The notes under the pieces were generated by a model. The model did no database searches. It was not told where the DNA came from and saw only the letters and a program-made list of their open reading frames with translations. Positions 1,868-25,644 of a DNA stretch of 25,644 bases are shown here, in pieces. The translations under genes and the position numbers were made by a program. Origin of the DNA: a virus (lineage: Duplodnaviria > Caudoviricetes); IMG/VR virus record IMGVR_UViG_3300037047_000281, positions 1 to 25,644 of that record. One strand, given 5' to 3'. Every line of letters begins with the position of its first letter. The stretch's first letter is position 1.

Positions 1868-2776
1868 ATGGCCAACAAACCTACCCCCGCCGCTCAAGTC
1901 ATTGATATCCCCATGAACCAGGTCGTGCTTGACCAGGAGCGCAGCGCCCTCACCAGTCTGGCACTCATCACCGCCCAACAAGACAGCGCCGTGCGCGCCG
2001 TGGCCCTGCAAATGGGCTATGCACTGCCCGCCGACTGCACCGACCCCGACCTGATCCAGCGCGACATCAGCGCCAACATGCGCCGCAGCGTGGAAGCTTG
2101 CCTGGAAGTGGGCAAGGGCTTGCGTGTGCTGAAAGAGGCTTGTGTCCATGGCAGCTTTATGGCCCGGCTGGATGTGCTGAATATTGATGATGGGGTCGCC
2201 CGCAAGTTCATGCACGCAGCGGCCAAGTTTTCAAATCGGTCGTCAACGACCGTTTTAAAGGCGATCAACTCCCAGACCAAGCTTTTTGAAATGCTGGTCC
2301 TGGATGACGATCAAATGGAAGAACTCGAACTCACCGGCCAGACCGGCGAACTCGCCCTCGACGACGTGGCCACCATGTCGGTCAAGGAATTGCGCAAGGC
2401 GGTGCGTGAGGCCAAGGCAGAAAAAGAAGCCACAGAAAAGCTGCTGGAAAGCAAAAACAAGCAGATCGACAAACTGAGCCGCCACATTGCCAAGGCCACG
2501 CCCGACACCGTGCTGCTGGAGCTGCAGAAAGAAACCACCGCCTTCACCAACGATGCGCTGGGCTGCATTCAGGGCCAGCTGCGCCAGGCCTTCATTGCCC
2601 TCAAGAACCATGGCGACGGCAGCGCCGACCACAGCCTGTTCATGGCCGGGCTGCTGGGCCAGGTGCAGGCCGAGCTGGCCGCGCTGCGCGATGAATTCAA
2701 TTTGCCCGACATCAGCAACGCCCGAGACCAGGAGCTTGCCGCCGAGGTGGCGCAATGGGCCCCTGTGAGCCACTAA
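1868..2776 (+). CDS. DUF3102-like phage protein
   Basis: MRRSVEACLEVGKGLRVLKEACVHGSF...ARKFMHAAAKF and LDDVATMSVKELRKAVRE motifs; usual position before the transposase. Confidence 0.75.
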   Translation: MANKPTPAAQVIDIPMNQVVLDQERSALTSLALITAQQDSAVRAVALQMGYALPADCTDPDLIQRDISANMRRSVEACLEVGKGLRVLKEACVHGSFMARLDVLNIDDGVARKFMHAAAKFSNRSSTTVLKAINSQTKLFEMLVLDDDQMEELELTGQTGELALDDVATMSVKELRKAVREAKAEKEATEKLLESKNKQIDKLSRHIAKATPDTVLLELQKETTAFTNDALGCIQGQLRQAFIALKNHGDGSADHSLFMAGLLGQVQAELAALRDEFNLPDISNARDQELAAEVAQWAPVSH

Positions 2777-2790
2777 GCCATACCAACACC

Positions 2791-4569
2791 ATGGCCCTGA
2801 ACCCCGCCACCGTCGCGCGCCTGGTGCAGCTGGCGCAAGCCATTGCCAGCGCGCCACGCGGCAGCAAGCAGGCGCTGTACGCAGCGGCCTGTGCCGAGCT
2901 GGGGGTCAGCCTGCCCACCGTCCACCGTTACCTGGAACAAGTCACCGTGAAACCCACCCGCAAACAACGCTGTGACGCCGGCGCCGTGGAGCTGTGCCGC
3001 GACGACGCCCGCGCCATCAGTGCCCTGCTCACCACCAGCGCCCGCAAAACCGGCAAGCGCCTCATGAGCATTGGCCAGGCCGTCGACATGCTGCTGGCCA
3101 ATGGCGAGATCAAACCCTTTGTGCTGGACGACGCAACCGGCGAGCTCACCCGCCTGAGCGACAGTGCCATTGCCCGCGCGCTGCGCGCCTACGGCATGCA
3201 CCCCGACCAGCTCAACCGGCCCACCCCGGCGGTGGAGCTCAAAAGCCTGCACCCCAACCATGTGTGGCAGATCGACGCCAGCATTTGCGTGCTGTATTAC
3301 CTGACCCCCAGCAGCGCCAAAGAGGCCGGCCTGCAGGTGATGGCGCGCGACCAGTTTTACAAAAACAAGCCCGCCAACCTCAAGCGCATCGAAGCCGACC
3401 GGGTGTGGAGCTATGAGGTGACCGACCACAACAGTGGCGCCATCTTTGTGCACTATGTGATGGGCGCCGAAAGCGGCACCAATCTGGCCGAAAGCTTTAT
3501 TGCCGCCATCCAGAAACGCCCCAACGACCCGCTGCACGGCGTGCCATTTATTCTGATGATGGACATGGGCAGCGCCAACACCAGCGGCCTTTTTGGCAAC
3601 CTGGCGCGCCGCCTGCAGGTGCAGTTGATCGCCCACGCCCCCGGCAACGCCCGCGCCACCGGCCAGGTGGAAAAGGCCCGCGACATCATTGAGCGCAGCT
3701 TTGAGAGCAGCCTGCGCCTGCAGCCAGTGGCCGACCTGGCCGAGCTGAACTCCTGCGCCCAGCGCTGGGCCTGCTGGTTCAACGGCAACAAGGTGCACAC
3801 GCGCCACGGCAAAACCCGTTTTGAGCAGTGGCTCACCATTGCCCCCGAGCAGTTGCGCATTGCGCCACCGGCCCCGGTGTGCTTTGAGCTGCTGAGCGAA
3901 AAGGTGGAAACCCGCAAGGTCAATGACAACCTGACCGTGTCATTCAAGAGCGGCACCTATTGCGTCAAAACCGTGCCGGGCGTGATGGTGGGCGAGAAGC
4001 TGCAGATCACCGTCAACCCCTACGTGGCCAACGCCGCCCAGGTGCTGCTGAAAGACGCCGACGGGCACGAGGTGCTGCACAGCATACCGCTGCTGGAAAA
4101 AGACGATGCCGGCTTCCTGGAGCGCGCCAACGTCATCGGCGAAGACTTCGCCCGCCCGGCCGACACGCTGCTGGACACCAACCGCAAAGAGGTGCAGCGC
4201 TTTGCCTATGACGCCGCCACCGATGAAGAGGCCGAGGCCAAGCGCCGCGCCGGTGCCATCCCGCTGGGCAGCCGCATCGACCCCTACAAGGTGATTGCGC
4301 AGGCGCCCGAGCGCAGCTTTATGCCGCGCCGTGGCAATGACCTGGTGCCCGCTGTCACCACCAGCAGCACACCGGTACCGGTGCGCACCTTGAGCCAGTT
4401 CGAAGCCGCCCAGGCGCTGGCCAAGCTGGGCCTGCCTTTGAATGGCGAACTCATCACCACGCTGAAAAGCCTGTACGTTGAGGGCGTGCCCGAGGATGAA
4501 CTGCCCGCCCTGTTTGACCGCCTGACGGTGCGCAAGAGCTTGCGTGTGGTGAACGGGGGTGCGGTATGA
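2791..4569 (+). CDS. transposase A (DDE integrase family)
   Basis: N-terminal HTH; catalytic motifs HPNHVWQIDAS, MMDMGSAN and NARATGQVEK; likely start ATG 2791. Confidence 0.93.
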   Translation: MALNPATVARLVQLAQAIASAPRGSKQALYAAACAELGVSLPTVHRYLEQVTVKPTRKQRCDAGAVELCRDDARAISALLTTSARKTGKRLMSIGQAVDMLLANGEIKPFVLDDATGELTRLSDSAIARALRAYGMHPDQLNRPTPAVELKSLHPNHVWQIDASICVLYYLTPSSAKEAGLQVMARDQFYKNKPANLKRIEADRVWSYEVTDHNSGAIFVHYVMGAESGTNLAESFIAAIQKRPNDPLHGVPFILMMDMGSANTSGLFGNLARRLQVQLIAHAPGNARATGQVEKARDIIERSFESSLRLQPVADLAELNSCAQRWACWFNGNKVHTRHGKTRFEQWLTIAPEQLRIAPPAPVCFELLSEKVETRKVNDNLTVSFKSGTYCVKTVPGVMVGEKLQITVNPYVANAAQVLLKDADGHEVLHSIPLLEKDDAGFLERANVIGEDFARPADTLLDTNRKEVQRFAYDAATDEEAEAKRRAGAIPLGSRIDPYKVIAQAPERSFMPRRGNDLVPAVTTSSTPVPVRTLSQFEAAQALAKLGLPLNGELITTLKSLYVEGVPEDELPALFDRLTVRKSLRVVNGGAV

Positions 4570-4570
4570 T
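4540..4570 (+). promoter_or_regulatory. putative sigma70 promoter of the C4-like cassette, overlapping the transposase stop
   Basis: TTGCGT (4540-4545), 19 nt spacer, TATGAT (4565-4570); spacing is suboptimal. Confidence 0.4.
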
Positions 4571-4597
4571 TCGCTCGCTGTGCAAAAAAAGCGCAGT

Positions 4598-4613
4598 CGG
4601 GATTGGCGTCCCG
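4598..4613 (+). promoter_or_regulatory. upstream antisense target hairpin (a1/b1-like)
   Basis: CGGGA-TTGGCG-TCCCG stem-loop; TTGGCGT is complementary to ACGCCAA (4739-4745) in the RNA. Confidence 0.75.
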
Positions 4614-4684
4614 TTGCACCCCTACGACGAAAGCCGTAGGACTCCCGCAGTCACTGCGGCTTCGTTGTCTGTGCCCCCAGTTTT

Positions 4685-4761
4685 GGTGGCTCGGATGGGG
4701 GGCCGTAAGGCCGCCGTTTCCCGCAAGGGGTGCACGGTACGCCAACCCTGTTCGAGCTACC
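4685..4761 (+). ncRNA. C4/CI-family antisense RNA
   Basis: GGTGGCTCGGATGGGG pairs with CCCTGTTCGAGCTACC (with G-U pairs); internal hairpins GGCC-GTAA-GGCC and CCC-GCAA-GGG have GNRA loops; single-stranded TACGCCAA; overlapping frames show ash-family motifs KSAVGIGVP and YANPVRAT. Confidence 0.85.
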
Positions 4762-4786
4762 TCCCCGGATTGGCGTCTAAGGAGGT
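4759..4786 (+). promoter_or_regulatory. downstream antisense target (a2/b2-like)
   Basis: Second GGATTGGCGTC (4767-4777) inside an ACCTCC...GGAGGT stem. Confidence 0.7.
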
Positions 4787-4820
4787 GGTTTTTGCAAACC
4801 GCACCCCTTGGAGGCCATTC

Positions 4821-5087
4821 ATGGCACGTAATCCCTCGACCCCGGCTATTGCCGTCACTGACGTTGTTGACGCGCTCGACCACCTGTCTGATCACTTTCT
4901 CGCCTTTGAGGCCATCGAGCAATTGATCACCCCGCAAAAGGCCAATTGCAGAGAAGACCTGGCCCACGTAGACCGCCCCGCGCTGGGCGTCCTGCTCACC
5001 ATGCTCAACACCAGCATGCGCAACCAGATCACCGCAGCCCGCGCAGCGGCTGAGGTGGCCCACCAAATGAATCGGGGTGAAGCATGA
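4821..5087 (+). CDS. small protein downstream of the C4-like RNA (icd-position gene); may extend upstream to 4566 as an ash-like ORF
   Basis: GGAGG at 4810-4814 before ATG 4821; stop overlaps the next start (ATGA). Confidence 0.7.
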   Translation: MARNPSTPAIAVTDVVDALDHLSDHFLAFEAIEQLITPQKANCREDLAHVDRPALGVLLTMLNTSMRNQITAARAAAEVAHQMNRGEA

Positions 5088-6652
5088 GCCAAACAAACCA
5101 CAGCTACATGCCAATGGCCATTGATGGCCTCACGGGAACGGTGCGCTACACCTGCCCGCCGGGCGCTGAACCGTTGGTTGATTTGCGTTCCTTGTTTGAG
5201 GCGCTACGGATGAAGTGGCTGACATGGGAGGCACGGATGCTTGTCATTTGCAGCCAAAGGGGTTGGCAGCCACACATTGCAAAGGACTTTCAAGGCCGCA
5301 AAACACAGTTGCTTGCAGCATCCAGCGTGGCGCACCTGTTGTCAGCTCTCGCGGTGTCGCCGCTGGCCTGCCGCCATGCCACCAAAAGCAAATTGACGGC
5401 CTGTGCGCATATGTGGGACCGCAATTGGGAGAGGCTGGCAATTGGTACCGCAAGAGGGCGCGTTATGGGGCCGTTAACGCATGGAGAAGCCCAAGGGCAT
5501 ACCTGCGTACTCAAAAGCGTTGCGGAGGCCTCAAACGGCATTACGCCAACAACCGAGTTTGAGGTCTTGAAACTCACCGCAGACGGGCGCACACCCACCC
5601 AGATCGCCAAAGAACTAGGCCTGAACAGATCCACAGTCAGCCTGCTCGCCCGTGGCAAATACAAATTCGCCAAAAAGTTGGCCTCAGGGATATCGAACAC
5701 CCCTGAGGCCGTTTCCTCAACCCCAACCGTAACCGAAGAAAAGGAAGATCCGATGTTATTGCAAAACCAAGCCCTCAACCCCGAGGCACGCCAGCACTTC
5801 AAGCTGCCGCGCAACCCGTTTGTGGACGACGTGCAGAGCCCCGACGATGTTTTTCAGACGCCCAGCGTGCGTTATGTGCGCGCCGCGCTGCTCGACTGCG
5901 CCCAGCACCACGGCTTTGTGGCGGTGGTGGGTGAGAGCGGCGCGGGCAAGAGCACGCTGGCCGAAGACCTGGAGGAGCGCATCAAGGCCGACAAGCGCGA
6001 GGTGCTGGTGGTGCGCCCCTATGTGCTGGCCATGGAGGCCAACGACCAAAAGGGCAAAACCCTTAAAAGCGGCGCCATTGCCGAGGCCATTGCCTTTGCG
6101 CTCGACCCCCATATCAGCCTGCGCAGCAGCCCGCAGGCGCGTTTTCAGCAGGTGCATGACTTGCTCAAGGCCAGCCGCCGCGCCGGCCGACGCCACCTGC
6201 TGTTGATCGAAGAGGCCCATTGCCTGCCGCTGGCCACGCTCAAGCACCTCAAGCGCTTTCTGGAGTTGAAAGACGGCATGCAGCGTCTGATTGGTGTGGC
6301 CCTGATTGGCCAGCCCGAGCTGCGCGAGCGCCTGGGTAGCCAGAACGCCGAGGTGCGCGAGGTGGCGCAGCGCTGCGAGATTGTGGCGCTGGACCCGCTG
6401 GACGGCGAGCTTGAAGCCTACCTGCAGCACAAGTTTGCCCGCTTCGACCTCAAGCTCTCTGACGTGTTTGCGCCGGACGCCTTTGACGCCATGCGCGCCC
6501 GCCTCATCCACACGCCACGCGGTGGCCGCCCGGCCGATGCGCGCAGCCTGTGTTACCCGCTGGTGGTGAACAACCTGGTGTGCCGCGCCATGAACGCTGC
6601 CGCCGCCGCCCACTGGCCGCAGGTGGACGCCCAGGTGGTGAAGGGGTGCTGA
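5084..6652 (+). CDS. transposition ATPase B (ExeA-like AAA+) with N-terminal antirepressor-like domain and HTH
   Basis: Walker A GESGAGKST, Walker B LLLIEEAH; HTH GRTPTQIAKELGLNRSTVSLLARG; N-terminal ~120 aa resembles P22 Ant N-terminal domain; possible internal start ATG 5753. Confidence 0.88.
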   Translation: MSQTNHSYMPMAIDGLTGTVRYTCPPGAEPLVDLRSLFEALRMKWLTWEARMLVICSQRGWQPHIAKDFQGRKTQLLAASSVAHLLSALAVSPLACRHATKSKLTACAHMWDRNWERLAIGTARGRVMGPLTHGEAQGHTCVLKSVAEASNGITPTTEFEVLKLTADGRTPTQIAKELGLNRSTVSLLARGKYKFAKKLASGISNTPEAVSSTPTVTEEKEDPMLLQNQALNPEARQHFKLPRNPFVDDVQSPDDVFQTPSVRYVRAALLDCAQHHGFVAVVGESGAGKSTLAEDLEERIKADKREVLVVRPYVLAMEANDQKGKTLKSGAIAEAIAFALDPHISLRSSPQARFQQVHDLLKASRRAGRRHLLLIEEAHCLPLATLKHLKRFLELKDGMQRLIGVALIGQPELRERLGSQNAEVREVAQRCEIVALDPLDGELEAYLQHKFARFDLKLSDVFAPDAFDAMRARLIHTPRGGRPADARSLCYPLVVNNLVCRAMNAAAAAHWPQVDAQVVKGC

Positions 6653-8840: not shown

Positions 8841-9076
8841 CCAGCACGGCCCAAATCAACTTGGCCAACCTGCACGAGTCCGTAGGATTCAAAAAGGCCG
8901 TCCCGCCTGAGCCAAAAATTTACGCGATGTCCGCAATTGCTGTTACTTCGTTTTTGCGCGGCGAACTGACCCTGCACAGAGTCAACCTGCGCTGCCGCAC
9001 CCACAAATTCAAAGTTCGGATGGAAACCGTCTGTGACTCCCACAGTTTTCAGTACACGAATCGGGGCGACAAATGA
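8837..9076 (+). CDS. hypothetical protein
   Basis: ATGA overlaps at both ends; lower GC than neighbours. Confidence 0.5.
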   Translation: MTSTAQINLANLHESVGFKKAVPPEPKIYAMSAIAVTSFLRGELTLHRVNLRCRTHKFKVRMETVCDSHSFQYTNRGDK

Positions 9077-9594
9077 GCACGCAAGTCCAAACCACCAACA
9101 TCACGGTCAAGTCAGTGTGTGGCACCTACCAGACCAACACCGTGCAGGGCATGCGTGCCAGCTGCACCACGGGTGACAGGCAAGCGGCCCAGCGCCTGGG
9201 CGAGAAGTTATACGGTGCGTCACTGGTCACCGTATCGCAGGTGCCGGTTCGGGGCGACCACACCTGCACGCACTGGAAGTTGTACGCCGAGCCGGTGCAT
9301 GCCTGGGCCTGGCAGTCCGGCCTGATCGAGTTCGGCCGCGAGGTGCCCGAAGGTGCGATTGGGTTCGCCGCCGGTATGGACGTGCCACTGCGCCAACTTG
9401 TGGACGTGTTGGCGCGGCATGGCCAGGGCAAGAGCGAAGGCAAGCTGCTGGTGCCTGGCGTGCCGGAGGCCGAGACCGGAAAAGCCCAGGTTGATGCGTT
9501 GGTCGCATGGGTAGATTGGTGCGCCAAGGGGAATGGCAAGAAAGAATCGGCTGGCGTGGTTTTCACAAATCGCGTTGAAGGCGGAACGTCATGA
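9073..9594 (+). CDS. hypothetical phage protein
   Basis: C-terminal AWAWQSGLIEFGREVPEGAI...LLVPGVPEA motif of a kind seen in Mu-like early regions; coupled overlaps. Confidence 0.7.
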   Translation: MSTQVQTTNITVKSVCGTYQTNTVQGMRASCTTGDRQAAQRLGEKLYGASLVTVSQVPVRGDHTCTHWKLYAEPVHAWAWQSGLIEFGREVPEGAIGFAAGMDVPLRQLVDVLARHGQGKSEGKLLVPGVPEAETGKAQVDALVAWVDWCAKGNGKKESAGVVFTNRVEGGTS

Positions 9595-25297: not shown

Positions 25298-25315
25298 ATA
25301 TCTCAGCGCGCTTTA
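25221..25315. repeat. putative prophage right end (attR) with repeated transposase-binding-like motifs
   Basis: ATGTTTTTC x2 (25221, 25258), TTTCGTTGCG x2 (25226, 25239), AAATATC x2 (25273, 25296); abruptly AT-rich. Confidence 0.55.
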
Positions 25316-25644
25316 GTGTGCCGGTGTTTGTGAACCCCACCTCCGCGCTCAGTCCCCGGCTTCGCTGGCAGGCCAGCCTCACCCCGGCCGGGATGATCAA
25401 GCTCAAGGTGTCCAACGAGGGAAATTTCCATATTCACCTGACTGACCTCAAACTGATGGAGTCGGGCGGTCACCGTCAGATCATCGACAAGAATCGGGTC
25501 CATGCTTATATGCTGCCGGGGAAGTCGCTGGAACTGACGCTCAAGCCTGAATTCGACTGGAAAGGCGAGCGTTTCAGACTGTCCGCTTCTACCGACAGGG
25601 GTGTTGTGGATACCGAACTTGTGCTGGAAGAAGAAAAGCCGTAG
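25309..25644 (+). pseudogene. 3' fragment of a fimbrial/pilus periplasmic chaperone (PapD/CsuC-like), host gene
   Basis: (RF)SVPVFV.P...LRW...LKVSNEGNFHI...YMLPG; in-frame TGA at 25267, so the signal peptide and N-terminal domain are missing. Confidence 0.7.

Follow-up and report, generated by a model that had tools for sequence, protein, structure and literature searches.

The B gene described here, from a Mu-like phage, is a 522-aa fusion that is real, under purifying selection and conserved in relatives. The reading that we favour, with a probability of roughly 0.55, is that of a B3/BcepMu-type B variant whose N-terminal cassette was likely replaced by a whole accessory gene, and which would work as B with an enlarged, likely DNA-binding appendage. 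The window, i.e. the whole 25,644-nt stretch of viral DNA that was analysed (IMG/VR record IMGVR_UViG_3300037047_000281), holds most of a transposable phage of this kind, with early regulators, A, B, DUF3164, Mor and virion genes recognised by Pfam/PHROG. Its last ORF (25303-25644) resembles by eye a fragment of a host pilus-assembly chaperone, which would place the prophage's right boundary at about 25.3 kb.

The fused gene and its relatives

The early genes in and around the fusion are arranged as follows.

2755..4569 (+): transposase A (phrog_310), with a TGA stop that shares bases with the start codon of the following frame (ATGA)
4566..5087 (+): frame of 173 aa that runs across the C4 region, coupled to the stop of A and P4 Eta/Ash-like by position only
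4821..5087 (+): orf88, a nested gene in icd/kil position, with a stop that overlaps the start codon of long B
5753..6652 (+): AAA+ core of B (ExeA-like/phrog_296), with Walker A at aa 283 and Walker B at aa 373-379

Long B (ORF 5084..6652, + strand) is free of stop codons from Met1 to Met224. The preliminary description was thus right that an N-terminal part runs uninterrupted into the ATPase core, and also that this part is lower in GC (0.575, with a GC3 of 0.65, over aa 1-196 vs 0.66 and 0.84 in the core). The core matches AAA_22 (aa 275-417) and phrog_296 'DNA transposition protein' in Pfam and PHROG and, with its Walker motifs and its position downstream of a DDE transposase A, is a bona fide transposable-phage protein B. 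The closest named B cores are those of Rhodoferax and other Comamonadaceae, while among cultured phages BcepMu, phiE255 and Fc02-type phages come nearest, at 50-54%. Among the best 120 of 1688 homologs, only the query itself is covered over its full length, the others being mostly proteins of 395-450 aa with unrelated N-termini that end in a common linker. Neither the 173-aa frame nor orf88 has a match in Pfam/PHROG. Both are found in L018 and L039, with orf88 65% and 55% identical in amino acids, respectively.

The same open fusion is carried by L001 and L032, which come from two samples, are 88% (N-terminal part) and 94% (core) identical to the window at the protein level, and are counted as one lineage because they are 99.87% identical to each other; their fusion protein, of 524 aa, is recorded on three contigs. 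Between the window and this lineage, dN/dS is 0.22 over aa 1-120 (Fisher p 6e-5), 0.02 in the helix-turn-helix (HTH) and 0.11 in the core, with a non-significant 0.36 in the linker and, likewise, no significant constraint over aa 121-155. A contig from a run of another study (X23) is gap-free and collinear with the window over 5000-5149 and 5514-5685, at 85-87%, and a second run of that study (X24) has matching pieces; among the changes listed for X23 in the long frame, 17/24 are in third position, 15/21 changed codons are synonymous and none is a stop. The caveat of the preliminary description, that the fusion might stem from a sequencing error or a recent stop loss absent in relatives, is therefore answered by L001/L032. 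That the fusion is an assembly artefact, or reflects a recently lost stop codon, has a negligible chance of being right: a candidate run tiles the region, yet with two short contig overlaps (27 and 14 nt), and against this stand independent lineages that hold the frame under selection at a dS of about 0.3, L001/L032 being in themselves a refutation.

In L001 (1-3329), transposase A is only about 34% identical to that of the window in the matched segment, rising to 77% in the last 190 nt, and the junction of such a divergent A to a 94%-identical B means that A and B are exchanged independently. Word-based protein searches with the fused N-terminal part returned the query itself as the sole match, tblastn of cultured phages gave weak HTH matches only, and scans of 144 genomes of the genus Rhodoferax and 401 of its family gave weak matches that were mostly to the HTH part (the one inspected, L195, is a LuxR regulator). 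A metagenome collection gave no match for the two-sequence alignment or the junction pattern, and no RNA dataset was listed as containing the exact stretch of the window.

The cap and its exchange on a near-constant core

The N-terminal part, or cap, comprises two regions.

5084..5443 (+): domain of KilA-N/Bro-N/P22_AR_N fold, predicted to bind DNA (aa 1-120; predicted fold, dN/dS 0.22)
5549..5671 (+): HTH part of the cap (HTH_23, profile homologs, fold match, dN/dS 0.02)

In Pfam and PHROG, the cap matches an HTH only (HTH_23 at aa 159-186, 25.7 bits for a Pfam cut-off of 24.6), residues 10-120 being without a match. This first region had been likened by eye to the N-terminal domain of P22 Ant, a likeness that holds at the level of the fold and is not significant for the single sequence. 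P22_AR_N (PF10547) gave no match at E<=10 with aa 1-131 of the window or of L069 and none at E<=0.05 across 13 homologs, and an earlier two-sequence hhalign comparison fell inside the shuffle range. Against our own shallow P22_AR_N profile, hhalign aligned 77-78 columns in register (E 0.003-0.009, at a probability of only 4-10%), and a 15-row alignment scored 23.1 (probability only 10%) vs 11.0 +/- 1.9, with a maximum of 17.3, in 200 shuffles. The fold modelled from this 15-row alignment has a pLDDT of 85-96 over aa 11-110 and is confident also over aa 151-190, while the single-sequence fold was unusable (pLDDT 39). Its beta-beta-beta-alpha-alpha-beta-hairpin-alpha-alpha topology is that of the KilA-N/APSES/Bro-N/P22_AR_N superfamily. 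BFVD ranks an 'Ant N-terminal domain' protein first (E 3.2e-5), with numerous Bro-N and Ant rows behind it, and the Atlas lead is Bro-N/P22_AR_N (0.88-0.91). In VIA, the top four rows for aa 1-120 have Z scores of 8.3-6.7 that are near the usual background (4ye7, Z 8.3, rmsd 2.7, 94 aligned; Dachshund, 7.2; two Mbp1 entries, the better at 7.0), and the HTH part matches IstA and Tc3; Foldseek on the PDB found no match at E<=0.001. The likeness to P22 Ant is thus right at the superfamily level, by the predicted fold, yet it lies below the Pfam thresholds, and by HMM score the cap domain is no member of Pfam P22_AR_N.

Searched with a profile, 1.84 billion representatives yielded 27 matches to the cap, of which 13 span aa ~6-197 in proteins of 191-334 aa without an ATPase match, which stop soon after 'GxYxFA' or carry a second HTH. 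Phages of the same clade have two further free-standing homologs (L021 and L046, i.e. 2/50 records) among their early accessory genes, and the stretches retrieved around these contain no C4. Viral scans with two free-standing homologs found nothing. With its HTH, the cap belongs to a small family of accessory genes that otherwise stand alone; it is a whole gene of two domains, shaped like the front half of an antirepressor and predicted to bind DNA. Another window ORF (9073-9594), with PHROG matches including phrog_1518 'host nuclease inhibitor', has a homolog in L021, two genes ahead of the free-standing relative of the cap.

How B acquires its N-terminus was addressed by comparison of relatives, in a set of 77 non-redundant loci (111 in all). 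An upstream start at the stop of A, in frame with the core, could be assigned automatically in 63 of them, where the N-terminal additions measure 28-48 aa without HTH (10 loci), 82-139 aa (52 loci) or 225 aa (L001), and an in-frame HTH is retained ahead of the core in 52/63. Among the remaining 14 are the window, L092, L015 and loci with small genes between A and B. On a quick tree of 75 B cores (L068 and L113, which are truncated, were left out), 44 cores carry an XRE-like HTH, 17 an accessory-type HTH, 13 none and one another type. The accessory label, assigned from HMM or blastp scores in 14/17 cases and by inspection in 3/17, requires at least four changes forced by the starred branches of this tree. 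As to where the breaks fall, L002 resembles the window only from 5668, L001 resembles L002 only from the linker, and the X2/X4 contigs join 4569 to 5705 through 341 other bases. These crossovers place the exchange of N-terminal cassettes at a hairpin linker (about 5668-5710). The earlier idea that the native N-terminus of B was replaced is supported, in a family in which the cassette is routinely swapped between three types. The proposed route, recombination through the HTH, is not borne out, since the crossover sits at the linker and the HTH is part of the gene that came in. In this comparison, the window appears as the extreme case, in which an entire accessory gene was taken up and not an HTH alone. 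Small unrelated genes are inserted between A and B in L036, L096, L097, L098, L013 and L048, which makes the A-B junction an insertion hot spot.

Fc02 (a B3-like Pseudomonas phage) and Burkholderia BcepMu (gp08) have a B with the same phrog_296 'ExeA-like' AAA+ core, 50-53% identical, and an N-terminal extension, directly after A; their extension is of about 100 aa, whereas that of the window is of 223 aa, has two domains and lies behind a C4 cassette. MuB of phage Mu, which belongs to a different B subfamily (no MuB-specific model in Pfam/PHROG matches the B of the window), is likewise an AAA+ ATPase for target capture, whose N-terminal HTH domain is attached by a flexible link (PMC11292022), and a title cited in that paper has this domain mediating filament-filament contacts. 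Such a flexible link to AAA+ would explain how B tolerates such different caps, and it speaks against the view that the cap is a tethered passenger, which would do its own regulation while short B (from 5753) transposes and the open frame only feeds ribosomes to the internal start. We regard this view as unlikely, albeit the best placed of the alternatives. The same two domains do stand alone in 15 homologs, 10/63 loci keep merely a leader of 28-48 aa in frame, and the linker evolves faster (at a dN/dS that is not significant), but retention of the HTH in frame in 52/63 loci argues for the usefulness of a capped B.

Candidate internal start and minus-strand hairpin

Immediately upstream of the core lie two further elements.

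5672..5710 (-): conserved hairpin (5680-5710) with a U-tract, resembling an intrinsic terminator, at the point of N-terminal cassette exchange
5741..5758 (+): SD-like site, ATG (5753) and rare second codon TTA, found family-wide and also in Fc02 and BcepMu

The preliminary description had suggested that the purine-rich AAGGAAG (5741-5747) and the ATG at 5753 could give a short B as an outcome of the fusion. The site is indeed there and is a plausible start, but it is no product of the fusion: the internal ATG is found in 110/111 loci (that of L102 is out of register) and any short form therefore predates the fusion. In 76/77 non-redundant loci it is preceded by an SD of -4 kcal/mol or stronger, as are 32% of 415 other internal ATGs. 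The second codon is TTA or CTA in 71/77 (these make up 43/2410 of the Leu codons in the core), and codons 4 and 6 end in A. When the same acidic residues are recoded synonymously, the SD comes out equally strong (-7.85 +/- 0.3 vs -7.5 observed), which means that the SD may partly follow from the choice of amino acids. Translation likely starts at 5753 as well, giving a cap-less B of 299 aa throughout the family. L015 (3895-4003), where B has hairpin, SD and ATG and no upstream in-frame start, is a candidate for a natural short-only B. In L092 (3100-3500), a frameshift in a G run hits the N-terminal HTH region of B, the public annotation having the 299-aa form only; either the assembly is at fault or this is a natural allele that makes the short form alone. 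We found no report in the open-access literature of an internal start or isoform of B. To our knowledge, neither an internal start nor swapping of N-terminal cassettes is known for MuB.

The hairpin is labelled a minus-strand terminator by a terminator scan. A strong hairpin precedes the internal ATG in 66/77 loci vs 29/228 control windows, it is stabler on the minus strand in 75/77, and its stem, behind an A-run, mostly lies 42-51 nt from the ATG. The mismatches in 47 anchored stems (50 A.C, no G.T and 10 others) correspond to G.U pairs on the minus strand. On that strand, 96% of the cells of a covariation alignment pair and 54 changes are double-sided, vs 14.4 when shuffled and at most 17 when slid; these values come from 35 rows (loci with a clear stem, and Fc02), with a structure derived from the same sequences, and include a few rows that are shifted and one whose coordinates are wrong. 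Fc02 and BcepMu have the same hairpin, SD and ATG[CT]TA. This last motif, read on the minus strand, is TA[AG]CAT (TAACAT in the window), which is -10-like and present in 71/77 loci, while no conserved -35 box for a minus-strand RNA was found across the 77. A -1 frameshift signal at AAAAAG was considered and rejected, given that the stem begins just 2-3 nt downstream, that the plus strand folds worse in 75/77 loci and that the reading phase of the 5' arm varies (LAP or VGP).

The arrangement of hairpin, SD and ATG, which occurs once in the window, recalls that of Sar and oop, i.e. an intrinsic terminator on the opposite strand, upstream of a start codon. Common to the annotated P22 Sar, lambda oop and the B site are a terminator on the minus strand, 40-70 nt ahead of a start codon, and a candidate -10 box where the coding region begins. 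Unlike in both of these systems, the hairpin in B is inside a reading frame and the RNA is a candidate. A consensus scan detected no sigma-70 promoter on either strand of 4300-6000, which, with the lack of a conserved -35 box, makes the antisense RNA hypothetical. By analogy, the hairpin suggests an oop/Sar-like antisense RNA across the internal start of B, and a short RNA of this kind, ending at the minus-strand terminator, would tune the 5753 start. No report of an oop/Sar-like RNA in Mu-like phages was found in the open-access literature, and the main text of the Fc02 transcriptome paper mentions no RNA in B (PMC9936078).

It could be argued instead that the long form is the only product, with Met224 structural and the hairpin a plain terminator that keeps leftward read-through out of A and the regulatory genes' region. 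The synonymous control, which shows no extra SD signal, the missing promoter and a G.U pattern that proves merely which strand folds are all in keeping with this. We nevertheless consider it improbable in view of TTA/CTA as codon 2 in 71/77 loci, the A-ending codons 4 and 6, the fixed spacing of hairpin and ATG, and L015, which lacks the upstream start. What appears to be new here is a covarying minus-strand terminator hairpin, 42-51 nt upstream of an internal ATG, that doubles as a recombination point.

The C4 cassette and the role of long B

Between A and long B lie the elements of a C4 cassette.

4603..4623 (+): C4 target 1, with b1 at 4603-4609 (in the loop of a CGGGA..TCCCG hairpin) and a1 at 4615-4623
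4679..4767 (+): C4 antisense RNA (Rfam RF01695, 55.7 bits for a gathering score of 45), with a' at 4724-4734 and b' at 4739-4745
4770..4810 (+): C4 target 2, with b2 at 4770-4776 and a2 at 4801-4810, just upstream of the ribosome site of orf88

The RNA scores above the Rfam gathering threshold and its a'/b' are complementary to targets both upstream and downstream, as in C4 RNAs; Rfam c4-a1b1 and isrK match the region of target 1 below gathering. With no sigma-70 promoter found, the c4 promoter is hypothetical. A c4-2 match on the minus strand of the linker (19.7 vs 41 bits, poorly aligned) was taken as chance. C4 is present in 4/33 related loci scanned. In L018 (284-1730), the same C4-orf88 cassette (74% over 502 nt) follows A and is in turn followed by an unrelated Cys-rich gene of 167 aa and a B with another unrelated N-terminus, of 143 aa; the a' loop and one target differ from those of the window, which suggests a different immunity specificity. 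C4 cassettes lie elsewhere in the early operon of related Mu-like phages (L039:3429-4911, L010:436-782, L103:6994-7082), preceding a KilA-N gene in L039. No report of C4 in Mu-like phages was found in the open-access literature.

L001 is without the cassette (4570-5081 of the window are absent), yet it retains GCATGA, the last bases of the cassette in both the window and L018, and in X23/X24 the end of orf88 is joined to an Ant-like gene at a deeper divergence than that of L001. Loss is the simpler history because of these two traits, and L001, the closest relative, has probably lost the cassette, although a gain via crossover at AGCATGA may be an alternative. Since the fusion exists in L001 without C4, the cassette is dispensable for it. 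Of the claim that a c4-icd-ant module recombined into B through the HTH, arrival as one unit is plausible (X23/X24 junction, intact c4 module), and entry via the HTH is not supported. We infer that the accessory gene entered behind the c4-orf88 cassette, by recombination between the 3' end of A and the linker hairpin.

The cassette resembles P1 c4-icd-ant and P4 CI/eta/kil in its C4 RNA with two a/b targets, its coupled long frame and its nested short ORF, followed by an Ant-fold gene. It differs from both in its location, which is between A and B in a transposable phage, so that an essential replication gene lies behind it. In P4, translation of the coupled eta/kil long frame prevents CI termination (PMC10111431). 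During lytic growth, ribosomes would go from A to the 173-aa frame and on to long B via ATGA overlaps, and this coupled translation would override C4 termination, by analogy with P4 Eta; in a lysogen, C4 would halt leak transcripts ahead of B and the downstream early genes. Control of the long form alone, as first proposed, does not fit this picture, in which (going by P4 and P1) C4-type control would act on the entire downstream transcript, for long and short forms alike.

A further reading, which builds on the preliminary description, takes long B for an antirepressor-ATPase under C4 control, by which transposition would be coupled to induction. Such a protein seems more improbable still than one made in the long form only, even though it would account for the Ant-N-like fold, for a place behind C4 and an icd-like ORF that matches the P1 gene order c4-icd-ant (PMC8198154), for the orf88-Ant-like junction retained in X23/X24 and for the cassette ahead of a KilA-N gene in L039. 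Neither long B nor its 13 homologs have the C-terminal domain of a P22 Ant or P1 Ant type antirepressor, no ANT/KilA-C, P22_AR_C or AntB domain being found (Pfam, PHROG), and the fusion in L001 runs directly from A without C4. In Listeria AriS, moreover, N-terminal domains that can be swapped are described as putative DNA-binding modules, separate from the activity of the C-terminal part, and overexpression of its AntA/B N-domain lowered phage gene transcription and left excision unchanged (PMC9043618). The cap shares its predicted fold and in-register motifs with the P22 Ant N-domain (PF10547), Bro-N and KilA-N, and for satellites both domain swapping and C4/CI association of Bro network proteins have been described (PMC10111431). 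The cap differs from Bro/Ant proteins in being below all Pfam/PHROG thresholds and in having an HTH and an ATPase as partners, not an antirepressor C-domain. It likely contributes DNA binding and not antirepressor activity.

Returning to B with a DNA-binding appendage, its importance lies in that transposition ATPases choose the insertion sites of the element. B alleles with no cap, an XRE or accessory HTH, or two domains on a near-constant core are a ready-made test of the role of the N-terminal domain, as asked for MuB, and the presence of internal start and minus-strand terminator in cultured Fc02 and BcepMu makes the isoform and antisense ideas directly testable. A broader view, which we put forward tentatively, is that B3/BcepMu-type B might be a two-isoform cassette device, in which an antisense RNA would set the ratio of capped to cap-less protein and the hairpin would be a recombination socket for the repeated uptake of Bro-network DNA-binding modules that retune target choice or target immunity; the whole replication operon would here also have come under C4 as a second layer of immunity. 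By analogy, with a C4 cassette ahead of B, a Mu-like phage would have its replication genes under RNA immunity in the manner of P4 and P1.
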